DNA from: Clostridia bacterium
GTDB taxonomy: Bacteria > Bacillota > Clostridia > TANB77 > CAG-465
Length of the DNA: 32,000 bases
Reading direction: 5' to 3'
Assembly (NCBI GenBank): GCA_017521005.1
Contig: JAFXEC010000005.1
Span: forward strand, 10,381 to 42,380
Part shown: piece after piece, positions 20,106-21,682 of the stretch
Position numbering within the stretch: the stretch's first letter is position 1
Layout: the number at the start of each line of letters is the position of its first letter
Notes under the pieces: model-generated
The model's database searches: none
The model's input: only the letters and a program-made list of their open reading frames with translations
What the model was told of the DNA's origin: nothing
Program-made: the position numbers and the translations under genes

Positions 20106-20137
20106 CAAGATAGTTTTTACTATCTTGCTTTTTTTTA
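20106..20137 (+). terminator. intrinsic terminator after map
   Basis: CAAGATAGT-tttt-ACTATCTTG followed by C and T9. Confidence 0.8.
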
Positions 20138-20154
20138 TTAATAAATGCTATAAT
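20125..20154 (+). promoter_or_regulatory. extended -10 promoter (TTGCTT-18-TGcTATAAT)
   Basis: TGc 20146-20148, TATAAT 20149-20154, upstream of the 20172 ATG (SD AGGAGG). Confidence 0.5.
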
Positions 20155-20171
20155 GACCTTAGGAGGCTAAT

Positions 20172-21281
20172 ATGATAAACAAAACTTTTGAAGAGTTAGG
20201 TGAATATAGAGCACCTGATGGTTATATAGATTTTGACAGAGTAGTAGAAGAAAATGATGTAGAAACTAAACGTGAAGTCAGAGGTAATGTAAACAGAGAA
20301 AAAGATTGGATTGAAATAGAAGGTGGAAGCGTACTTGTAAAAACAGATGCTGACGGTCAACCGAATTCAGAATATTCTGAACTTATTTCTTGTGCGTTAG
20401 CAAGACAAGCTGGAATAGAAACCGCTGAATATGATATGGTAAGATATAAAGGTGAAACAGGACTTATTACAAAAAATATGTGTAAGCCTGGCGAAGAAAT
20501 GGTATCTGTTTATGAACTTATAGGAAACGGCCCGGATAGTGAAACTTGCCCAGATACAATAGACATTTACCATGTTTTTGATAACCTAGACGAAAAACTT
20601 CAAGCAGAAGGTTTTGATGATAACGAAATAGATAGTTGTATGTTAAGTCTTAGAAAACAATTGCTATTTGATTTATCTATTATGGAAGCAGACAGGCATC
20701 TTGAAAATATATCTTTAATATTTGGCAAAGATGAAAATGGGAAAAGAACAGTAAGACTAGCTCCTATGTACGATACAGAGGCAGCACTTGTTCTAGGTAA
20801 TGAACCAGACAAGATGCTTATAGTAGCGAAAGACTGGGGAAAAACAGCTACGCTTACTGCGATGCAAGAATCTAGAATTTCAATAATACCAGAGAATGAA
20901 GATGTTGCTATTCCAGGATTACCAAGTGATGCATCACCCGCTATGGCAAGTTTTTTTGCACAACTTTATGGTGGGGTAAAAAAGAATGATCGTAAAGAGT
21001 ATGGTTCGTTAAGTGAAGAAATGTGGAAGAAAACTTTCGATTTTCTTTGTGAGGACGAAAGAGTTGCAGAATATTTTGAGACAACTCTAAGTAAAATGAA
21101 CATATCTAAAGCAATAGGAGAGGTTGAAGCGAAAATAGGAACTAGATTACCAGAGCATGTTCGCGCAATGGCAATAGCTTGTTTTGAAGATAGAAAAATG
21201 GCTATGGAACATAGGCATGAAACAATGAGAGATGAATTTATACAAGGAAGAAAAAGAAGTGATGATGATACTATAAGATAA
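20172..21281 (+). CDS. HipA-family Ser/Thr kinase core (HipT-like, lacks the N-terminal subdomain)
   Basis: Catalytic and Mg motifs EADRHLENISLIF...RLAPMYDTEAAL, upstream VLVK...ELISCALARQAGIETAEY. 369 aa. Confidence 0.7.
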   Translation: MINKTFEELGEYRAPDGYIDFDRVVEENDVETKREVRGNVNREKDWIEIEGGSVLVKTDADGQPNSEYSELISCALARQAGIETAEYDMVRYKGETGLITKNMCKPGEEMVSVYELIGNGPDSETCPDTIDIYHVFDNLDEKLQAEGFDDNEIDSCMLSLRKQLLFDLSIMEADRHLENISLIFGKDENGKRTVRLAPMYDTEAALVLGNEPDKMLIVAKDWGKTATLTAMQESRISIIPENEDVAIPGLPSDASPAMASFFAQLYGGVKKNDRKEYGSLSEEMWKKTFDFLCEDERVAEYFETTLSKMNISKAIGEVEAKIGTRLPEHVRAMAIACFEDRKMAMEHRHETMRDEFIQGRKRSDDDTIR

Positions 21282-21284
21282 TAG

Positions 21285-21313
21285 TTGACATAATCTAGAA
21301 ATTGTGTTATACT
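21285..21313 (+). promoter_or_regulatory. near-consensus promoter, TTGACA-17-TATACT with TGn
   Basis: TTGACA 21285-21290, TGt 21305-21307, TATACT 21308-21313, starting 4 nt after the kinase stop. Confidence 0.6.
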
Positions 21314-21366
21314 ATTATAGCGTGCAAAATAATATCTAATCACAACTTGTGAAAGGAGAAAAAGCA

Positions 21367-21642
21367 ATGATCAAATATGACGTGTGGTTTAAGAACTTTA
21401 GAGTCGGCGAATTGTTCATCAACGAAGCAGGACAACACAAATACGTTGTCGACATGGGTGCCGTAGAAATGGCAGAGAAAGATGATACTCTTTTTGCTGA
21501 TGCAAAGACCAATCGTGATTGGTGCGACCCTATCCCGTTCTTCGAAAGCAGAATTGCAAATTGCAAGAAGTTTGGCGAAGAGAATGAAATCCGTTATCCT
21601 AACAGTGAATATTACTTCATTAAGGATAACCATTACAACTAA
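21367..21642 (+). CDS. HipS-like small protein (resembles HipA N-terminal subdomain 1), putative kinase partner or antitoxin
   Basis: ATG 21367 after AAAGGAGA. MIKYDVWFKNFRVGELFINEAGQHKY...DPIPFFESRIAN resembles the HipA N-terminus (VTWMNNQRVGELTKLANGAHTFKY...FNFFDNLLP, from memory). Confidence 0.5.
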   Translation: MIKYDVWFKNFRVGELFINEAGQHKYVVDMGAVEMAEKDDTLFADAKTNRDWCDPIPFFESRIANCKKFGEENEIRYPNSEYYFIKDNHYN

Positions 21643-21652
21643 ATAAAGGTAC

Positions 21653-21682
21653 AAGAGCTGTGTGAAAACACAGCTCTTTTTC
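21653..21682 (+). terminator. intrinsic terminator
   Basis: AAGAGCTGTG-tgaaaa-CACAGCTCTT followed by TTT. Confidence 0.8.

Follow-up and report, generated by a model that had tools for sequence, protein, structure and literature searches.

HipA of Escherichia coli K-12, encoded in hipBA, is a single chain of 440 amino acids (aa) with an upstream helix-turn-helix (HTH) antitoxin, HipB. The tricistronic hipB-hipS-hipT system (HipBST), known from E. coli O127:H6 and Legionella pneumophila, divides the Hip fold between a kinase core, HipT, and a protein of ~100 aa, HipS, whose gene lies upstream of that of the kinase. As described, HipS neutralises HipT through Trp65, which is wedged beside the Gly-rich loop (PMC10627512). 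Two further arrangements place the kinase first. In hipJS, a short Hip kinase is followed downstream by a HipS-like putative antitoxin, and there is no HTH gene (Gerdes, Baerentsen & Brodersen 2021, mBio, PMC8262856). This layout accounts for two of the 1,239 modules described there and was proposed to derive from hipIN by removal of HIRAN, HipN combining a HipS-like domain with a C-terminal HIRAN domain (PMC8262856). PDC-M03, defined as a HipA protein together with a HIRAN protein (PMC13245101), corresponds to hipIN, and hipIN/PDC-M03 is presented as a predicted, unvalidated candidate defence system. Among the papers searched, we found no mention of hipJS after Gerdes et al. 2021. Here, we describe a kinase gene and a small downstream gene located between map and infA in a 32,000-nucleotide stretch of DNA from a Clostridia bacterium (contig JAFXEC010000005.1, positions 10,381 to 42,380; hereafter the window), and we compare this pair with the systems above.

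As in hipJS, the module is bicistronic with the kinase first, the kinase is devoid of N-subdomain-1, a HipS-like gene of ~100 aa follows, and neither an HTH nor a HipB gene is present. A first-pass annotation of this DNA had singled out the kinase-first order and the missing HTH gene against HipBST. This layout is indeed present but it is not new, being the hipJS organisation (PMC8262856). Differences from hipJS were also observed. HipJ and its relatives are 279-321 aa long and have a recognisable Gly-rich loop, whereas the kinases studied here are 353-386 aa long, show no canonical loop and carry a longer helical C-lobe. Moreover, the small protein escapes detection by Couple_hipA, its gene has its own conserved promoter, and the module is embedded in the ribosomal-protein (r-protein) cluster. 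With hipIN/PDC-M03, the pair shares gene order, PDC-M03A matches of the kinase and an alignment of the small-protein family with the N-terminal part of PDC-M03B; it differs by the absence of a HIRAN domain and by a partner of 79-124 aa in this family. Strong PDC-M03A matches favour a relation of the kinase to the HipI type. Judged from the published description of HipJ, the module would belong to the hipJS type, as a HIRAN-less relative of hipIN/PDC-M03.

The pair shares with HipBST the splitting of the Hip fold. It differs in having two genes with the small one downstream, in the S-psi-S autophosphorylation sites that HipT carries in a canonical Gly-rich loop, and in an invariant Arg that appears to align near the position of HipS Trp65. 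Both the catalytic and the Mg-binding motif can be aligned with those of HipA from E. coli K-12. The closest structural neighbour of the kinase, C-terminal helical region included, is CtkA (JHP0940) of Helicobacter pylori, a secreted pro-inflammatory kinase that is only 14% identical. We know of no HipS-like partner described for CtkA. What is most distinctive in the present pair is the longer C-lobe of its CtkA-like kinase, a partner unseen by libraries of hidden Markov models (HMMs), a conserved dedicated promoter and a long-term residence in the r-protein supercluster. Its layout represents a diverged form of an organisation already described, unusual mainly for its stable place among core translation genes.

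Overall, we favour, with a probability of roughly 55%, a chromosomal two-gene module of the hipJS type, in which an active Ser/Thr kinase core of the HipA superfamily is accompanied by a separate HipS-like protein that neutralises the toxic kinase.

The kinase and its small downstream partner

Two open reading frames (ORFs) of 369 and 91 aa, on the same strand, occupy the interval between the map stop (20097) and infA (21922); their coordinates and those of the other features are given in Table 1. Both ORFs and the peptides quoted from them in the first-pass annotation were present and correct. The 369-aa product matched the Pfam family HipA_C (PF07804) over residues 50-226 with 39.7 bits (gathering score 30.5; E 5.4e-10), and 30 of 30 kinase homologues carried the same domain. 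It also matched eight PADLOC PDC-M03A profiles (best E 2.8e-17), with alignments starting at residues 24-42. In the 30 homologues (44-88% identity), residues K57, E70, D174, R175, H176, N179, Y200 and D201 were invariant. The catalytic and Mg-binding motifs read by eye in the first-pass annotation are thus both borne out, as DRHxEN and MYD. Indeed, hhalign placed D174, N179 and D201 on D309, N314 and D332 of HipA, in which the catalytic motif reads D309-x-H-x-x-N314.

The AlphaFold2 (AF2) model of the kinase had a predicted local distance difference test (pLDDT) score of 86.9. Using this model, Foldseek returned CtkA as the best match (E 1.4e-8; template modelling score normalised to the target, TMt, 0.72), followed by HipT(Lp) (5e-6), HipA (6e-6) and then HipT, with a probability of 1.00 for CtkA, HipT(Lp) and HipA. 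The best PDB sequence match was also CtkA (E 0.079). Altogether, the data show that the 369-aa protein is a member of the HipA superfamily with its catalytic residues intact, as the annotation had proposed.

No Couple_hipA or HipA_N match was found in the kinase and K57 is close to the N-terminus, in agreement with the earlier view that the N-terminal subdomain is missing. About 125 residues following the YD motif had been regarded as having no counterpart. This did not hold: since the alignments with CtkA and HipA span 320-400 columns, this region corresponds to the helical C-lobe common to these kinases. A HipA-style Gly-rich loop had not been recognised by eye and none of canonical type (HipA 151-156), with an adjacent autophosphorylation Ser/Thr, was detected in the kinase, the Pfam match starting only at residue 50. 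Upstream of it, the pattern E35-x-R37-G38-x5-K44-x-W46 is invariant and lies between predicted strands 32-33 and 44-49; it contains no conserved Ser/Thr. From its place in the model, this loop is likely to be the equivalent of the HipA Gly-rich loop.

We then consider the 91-aa protein. Its AF2 model (pLDDT 85.5) was compared by Foldseek with 350,542 PDB chains. The top 20 matches were all either HipA N-terminus or HipS, and the HipS-type chains among them were HipS(Lp), HipS of E. coli O127 and the Haemophilus influenzae HipS-like protein 7czo. The template modelling score normalised to the query (TMq) was 0.54 with HipS(Lp) (8ezr_A), 0.53 with 7czo and 0.43-0.50 with HipS 7ab3. The first ~27 residues superposed on the HipA N-terminus at ~1 Å with 37% identity. 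Nine HipA N-subdomains, taken from K-12 and plasmid-borne HipA genes, were aligned and compared by hhalign with the small-protein family; the match begins at residue 1 of both and spans 65 columns (P=0.0025). The register brought FFESRI of the small protein onto FFDNLL of HipA, which reproduces the correspondence drawn by eye in the annotation. A second, larger subfamily of the small protein gave P=0.014 with an identical register. The two subfamilies aligned with each other only at P=0.0079, yet HMMER joins them at E ~1e-14. Therefore, hhalign has little power on such short profiles.

A link with the partner of PDC-M03A was also observed. Five of 36 small-protein family members matched PADLOC PDC-M03B and two matched other PDC-M03B models; family member P0047 matched PDC-M03B positions 19-116 of 248 (E 1.6e-4), while the window's own 91-aa protein matched none of the PDC-M03B profiles. 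Because fold ranking, register and partner identity agree, the 91-aa protein can be considered as probably HipS-like or N-subdomain-1-like. The likeness to the HipA N-terminus claimed at first pass thus finds support in the Foldseek ranking and in hhalign, but not in the profile libraries: with 22 family members, Pfam gave nothing relevant, and no Couple_hipA match at E<=10.

When 1.84 billion representatives were searched exhaustively by HMMER, the small-protein family profile yielded only 57 clusters. Their representatives are stand-alone proteins of 37-177 aa, barring a few spurious low-complexity long proteins, and neither a kinase fusion nor HipA or HipS was reached among them. R62 is the sole residue invariant across the whole small-protein family. 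In both hhalign comparisons, it aligned with L64 of HipA, within FFDNLLP. We conjecture that R62 would sit at the position of HipS Trp65, if HipS numbering equals that of HipA plus one (Glu63/Asp62).

Pairing, gene layout and expression signals

The loci of relatives, labelled L001 and so on, were each fetched with 4-10 kb of flank. Wherever there is room, the small gene adjoins the kinase gene, downstream and on the same strand (29 pairs at ~26 distinct loci), and this pairing persists down to 27% kinase identity. Only L044, where the contig ends 105 nt past the kinase, and L019, which carries a very remote HipA_C protein, are exceptions. Two tandem pairs, with genes overlapping by 1-4 nt, were found in each of L016, L018 and L049 (positions 5977-10312, 5668-8499 and 3986-6817, respectively). 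In L016, an extra 88-aa paralogue of the small protein, whose cluster P0044 occurs on 198 contigs, lies upstream of the second kinase. The family is rare, large protein collections containing 32 clusters of the kinase and 57 of the small protein, and the named sources of relatives are all gut or rumen 'Clostridia bacterium' metagenome-assembled genomes. The ratio of nonsynonymous to synonymous divergence (dN/dS) was 0.08-0.22 for the kinase gene and 0.02-0.17 for the small gene. Strict pairing, gene order and purifying selection are thus shown.

The small ORF can be extended upstream to 21349. However, the ATG at 21367 lies 8 nt past AGGAG and every small-protein homologue begins with MIKY; 91 aa is therefore the right length, and the start chosen in the annotation is supported. 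No third supported ORF, including an HTH or HipB-type gene, was found in the cassette, which holds only two genes between its terminators. An Rfam search of the cassette gave no match.

Table 1. Features of the kinase/small-gene cassette (window coordinates)
Feature	Position	Strand	Basis
Intrinsic terminator of map, 9-bp stem and T-run; upstream cassette boundary	20106..20137	+	hairpin 20106-20127
Extended -10 promoter-like element TGCTATAAT of the kinase gene, no clear -35	20146..20154	+	invariant in 7 loci
Shine-Dalgarno sequence AGGAGG of the kinase gene	20161..20166	+	invariant in 7 loci
Kinase gene, 369 aa, CtkA/HipT-like core without N-subdomain-1	20172..21281	+	HipA_C, PDC-M03A, AF2/Foldseek
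Candidate divergent Gly-rich (ATP-phosphate) loop, residues 35-46	20274..20309	+	invariant columns, AF2 strands
Catalytic motif E-x-D174-R-H176-x-x-N179-x-S, residues 172-181	20685..20714	+	invariant, 30 homologues
Mg-binding motif P-M-Y-D201-T-E, residues 198-203	20763..20780	+	invariant; aligned to HipA F-Y-D332
Putative internal promoter of the small gene, TTGACA-17 nt-TG-n-TATACT	21285..21313	+	11/12 consensus matches
Shine-Dalgarno sequence AGGAG of the small gene	21354..21358	+	sequence read
Small partner gene, 91 aa, probable HipS / HipA N-subdomain-1-like fold	21367..21642	+	AF2/Foldseek, hhalign, PDC-M03B link
Intrinsic terminator, 11-bp stem and T-run; downstream cassette boundary	21653..21682	+	hairpin 21653-21678

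Both hairpins with T-runs that had been described as bracketing the pair were located. In seven loci, the stem of the map terminator is kept and variation is confined to its loop. Terminator-like sites in the region numbered 4 against 0.8 expected. The number of promoter-like sites was at chance level (8 against 8.2 expected), so that the case for the promoters would rest on their conservation among relatives and not on their raw count. The hexamers of the internal promoter are both invariant or near-invariant in nine loci with variable neighbouring bases. L003 and L011 are among the nine, although their kinases share only 46-49% identity with that of the window and their pairs lie elsewhere in the genome. 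Each gene had been credited with a strong promoter of its own: both sites exist and are invariant in relatives, but that of the kinase gene shows no clear -35. No terminator was found between the two genes. The small gene would therefore be expressed in two ways, by read-through and from the promoter of its own.

Two further elements were observed in the stretch separating the cassette terminator from infA. An AT-rich inverted repeat of 14 bp is located at 21736-21768. A near-consensus promoter, TTGACT-17-TATAAT, occurs at 21818-21846 upstream of infA; it would be infA's own promoter, read-through from upstream being terminated.

Codon usage distinguishes the two genes. The GC content of third codon positions (GC3) is 0.48 in the small gene, 0.19 in the kinase gene and 0.11-0.21 in r-protein genes. 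Among NNY codons, the C-ending fraction is 0.55 in the small gene, as had been noticed, against 0.19 in the kinase gene, the r-protein genes having 0.42-0.58. This bias of the small gene is maintained in the lineage and in L011 (0.40-0.48) and is absent from L003 and the distant relatives; its elevated GC3 is upheld across the lineage at synonymous divergence (dS) of 0.2-0.8. Selection for high expression is a plausible cause but does not explain everything. Indeed, the GC3 of the small gene tops even that of the r-protein genes, lineage-wide, so that translational selection alone may not account for it. Different origins of the two genes, which the annotation had suggested from this contrast, are contradicted by their co-inheritance at every locus with downstream room, down to 27% kinase identity. 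The kinase might also have been thought to evolve fast (64% identity against 97-100% for its neighbours), an idea that we rejected because its dN and dS resemble those of an ordinary flanking gene, HIGH_NTase.

Genomic setting of the pair

Among relatives with an identical infA, the pair lies between map and infA in eight of ten distinct contexts. In L023 and L029, an intact map is followed directly by infA and no pair is present there. Since map is directly joined to infA in these two loci, the pair is an insertion into the adk-map-infA run, as the annotation had proposed. With kinases of 45-53% identity, the pair is found after tmk-thyA/thyX-(folA), immediately before the S10 leader and rpsJ. 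Deeper relatives occupy other slots: prfA/mutS, after gyrA, the metG...ferredoxin/thioredoxin...valS region, or next to pcrA or recD2.

Other genes of variable nature were observed in the r-protein cluster of the window. The folA-rpsJ interval (3416-5483) encodes a protein with WG repeats and two others, of 280 aa (weak sialidase-N/lectin match) and 192 aa, and the secY-adk interval (16301-18400) encodes putative membrane proteins of 525 aa and 167 aa. Between genomes, the identity of such lineage-specific cargo genes is 34-89%, against 97-100% for the r-proteins of the same genomes (L002, L006-L010, L026, L027). Homologues of the 280-aa and 192-aa proteins shift slot: some follow the small gene, some precede adk and some separate map from the kinase gene. 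Because these Pfam-less variable genes change position between genomes, the slots in this cluster also act as hot spots for insertion. Upstream of rpsJ, an S10-Clostridia ribosomal-protein leader was detected at 5619-5700 (37.5 bits; gathering score 35.1). It is the window's only Rfam match and is consistent with a Clostridia origin.

Synonymous divergence, measured over 14924-25366 against L001, L002, L006, L008, L010, L020 and L026, was very uneven. It was 0.02-0.3 for secY, infA, rpsD, rpoA and rplQ, 0.09-0.46 for adk and map, and 0.3-1.3 for the kinase, 525-aa, 167-aa and HIGH_NTase genes. The rank order of the relatives also changed by segment, L006 being near in the kinase gene and distant in the 167-aa gene. 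The pattern suggests one of two causes: strong constraint on synonymous sites in the r-protein cluster, or mosaic recombination with that cluster as its anchor.

The upstream neighbour map, encoding methionine aminopeptidase (window 19332-20097), is itself split into a 0-frame and a +1-frame part, with the shift site at 19647-19656 (AAA GGA C GGA). Omitting C19653 restored ...VYKG-GFHADAG..., identical to the intact map of L023 and L029. The shift site AAAGGACGGATTCC is invariant in six genomes, and synonymous variation around it follows, on either side, the frame expected there. Between genomes, the two halves of map are 97-100% identical, and the 0-frame codon at the shift site is CGG, which accounts for only 2 of the 401 Arg codons of the window. 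The pattern resembles conserved programmed +1 frameshifting at a hungry codon. A link between the frameshift and the kinase pair was considered and rejected, because L042 carries an intact map followed by the pair.

Proposed mechanism and competing explanations

If the pair is a neutralised toxic kinase, the small protein would bind the N-lobe of the kinase next to the ATP-phosphate loop, in the manner of HipS on HipT, and thereby keep the kinase off. The invariant Arg62, in the motif FF-x-x-[R]-I aligned with HipA FFDNLLP, would belong to the segment that delivers Trp65 of HipS into HipT. Transcription continuing from the kinase promoter, together with the small gene's own consensus promoter, would maintain the small protein in excess. 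Upon loss or displacement of the small protein, the kinase would phosphorylate a component of the translation apparatus, by analogy an aminoacyl-tRNA synthetase, and growth would be arrested. In this scheme, we infer the binding of the two proteins, inhibition as the direction of its effect, the toxicity, the target and the activity of the promoters from the resemblance to Hip systems.

Several observations weigh against this interpretation. Concerning the small protein, the Foldseek E-values were only 0.14-1.2 and the hhalign probability of the match with the HipA N-subdomain was only 12%. No significant match was obtained with Pfam (Couple_hipA PF13657, HipA_N), NCBIfam or PADLOC, the small-protein profile gave only a chance match among all PDB sequences, and hmmsearch with three family profiles scored E. 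coli HipA at -2.4 bits or less. In the kinase, neither a canonical Gly-rich loop nor an autophosphorylation Ser/Thr was found. Moreover, hipJS, hipIN and PDC-M03 have never themselves been shown to be toxic or defensive. Concerning the setting, the module lies among core genes (the r-protein cluster, prfA, gyrA, metG/valS), unlike patchy toxin-antitoxin or defence genes, and it has remained under purifying selection over saturated synonymous divergence. Neither an integrase nor a transposase was seen in the flanks fetched for each locus, no relatives were found in viral contigs, and a PHROGs search for phage relatives returned only function-unknown kinase-like families.

These last points would fit a domesticated regulatory kinase, that is, a putatively lineage-wide and vertically inherited housekeeping pair, wired into the r-protein cluster and tuning translation by reversible phosphorylation. 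We regard this alternative as possible, though on the unlikely side. It draws on the two alternative slots that the pair occupies in the r-protein supercluster, between map and infA or between tmk-thyA/thyX-(folA) and rpsJ, with kinases 45-100% identical, and on the proximity of its deeper relatives to prfA/mutS, gyrA and metG...fdx / trx...valS. No mobile-element genes flank the pair and no viral relatives exist among the contigs searched; the low dN/dS of the kinase gene is accompanied by the absence of decayed copies in the ~26 loci, and the small gene shares the C-ending NNY preference of r-protein genes. However, neighbourhood on its own does not show function. These genomes look gene-dense and of low GC content, so that any insertion falls beside core genes, and the same slots also hold variable, Pfam-less cargo genes that move, as insertion hot spots would. 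In addition, all characterised Hip kinases inhibit growth.

The resemblance of the small protein to HipA N-subdomain-1, which in fold and register is as close as that to HipS, raises another possibility. The pair could be an obligate split enzyme, in which the small protein is the lid that the kinase lacks and needs in order to fold, bind substrate or be active; it would then be an activating subunit instead of an inhibitor. The strict co-occurrence of the genes agrees with this, as does the stronger conservation of the small protein (mean column identity 74% against 56% for the kinase), and the Trp by which HipS blocks HipT was not found at the aligned position. In contrast, a separate and stronger promoter for the small gene suits a neutraliser made in excess better than a stoichiometric subunit, and in the only split systems tested, HipBST of E. 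coli and Legionella, HipS is the inhibitor. We consider the split enzyme improbable. Finally, it is very improbable that the kinase is an exported CtkA-type effector that targets the host or adjacent cells, the small protein either serving as a chaperone or being unrelated to it: CtkA is the best match in both structure and PDB sequence and the organisms are gut-associated, but identity to CtkA is only 14%, PDC-M03A HMMs match the kinase far better than CtkA does, neither a secretion signal nor nearby secretion-system genes were seen, and the conserved HipS-like partner indicates intracellular regulation.

A neutralised toxic kinase of the hipJS type remains our preferred interpretation. We put forward only tentatively a bolder version of the regulatory idea, in which the pair would be a vertically inherited core regulator of translation throughout a clade of uncultured gut Clostridia, residing long-term in either r-protein slot, with an Arg-based and not Trp-based HipS plug kept in excess by a dedicated promoter. 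If domestication were true, the pair would be a housekeeping descendant of a toxin-antitoxin system and not a mobile addiction or defence module. In either case, the family adds ~26 diverse examples to a hipJS-type layout previously predicted from two cases, and it offers invariant residues in both proteins, K57, D174 and D201 in the kinase and R62 in its partner. It provides a test case for HipS-type inhibition without HipB and without a Trp plug, and for whether such modules become fixed core regulators of translation instead of mobile toxin-antitoxin or defence genes.

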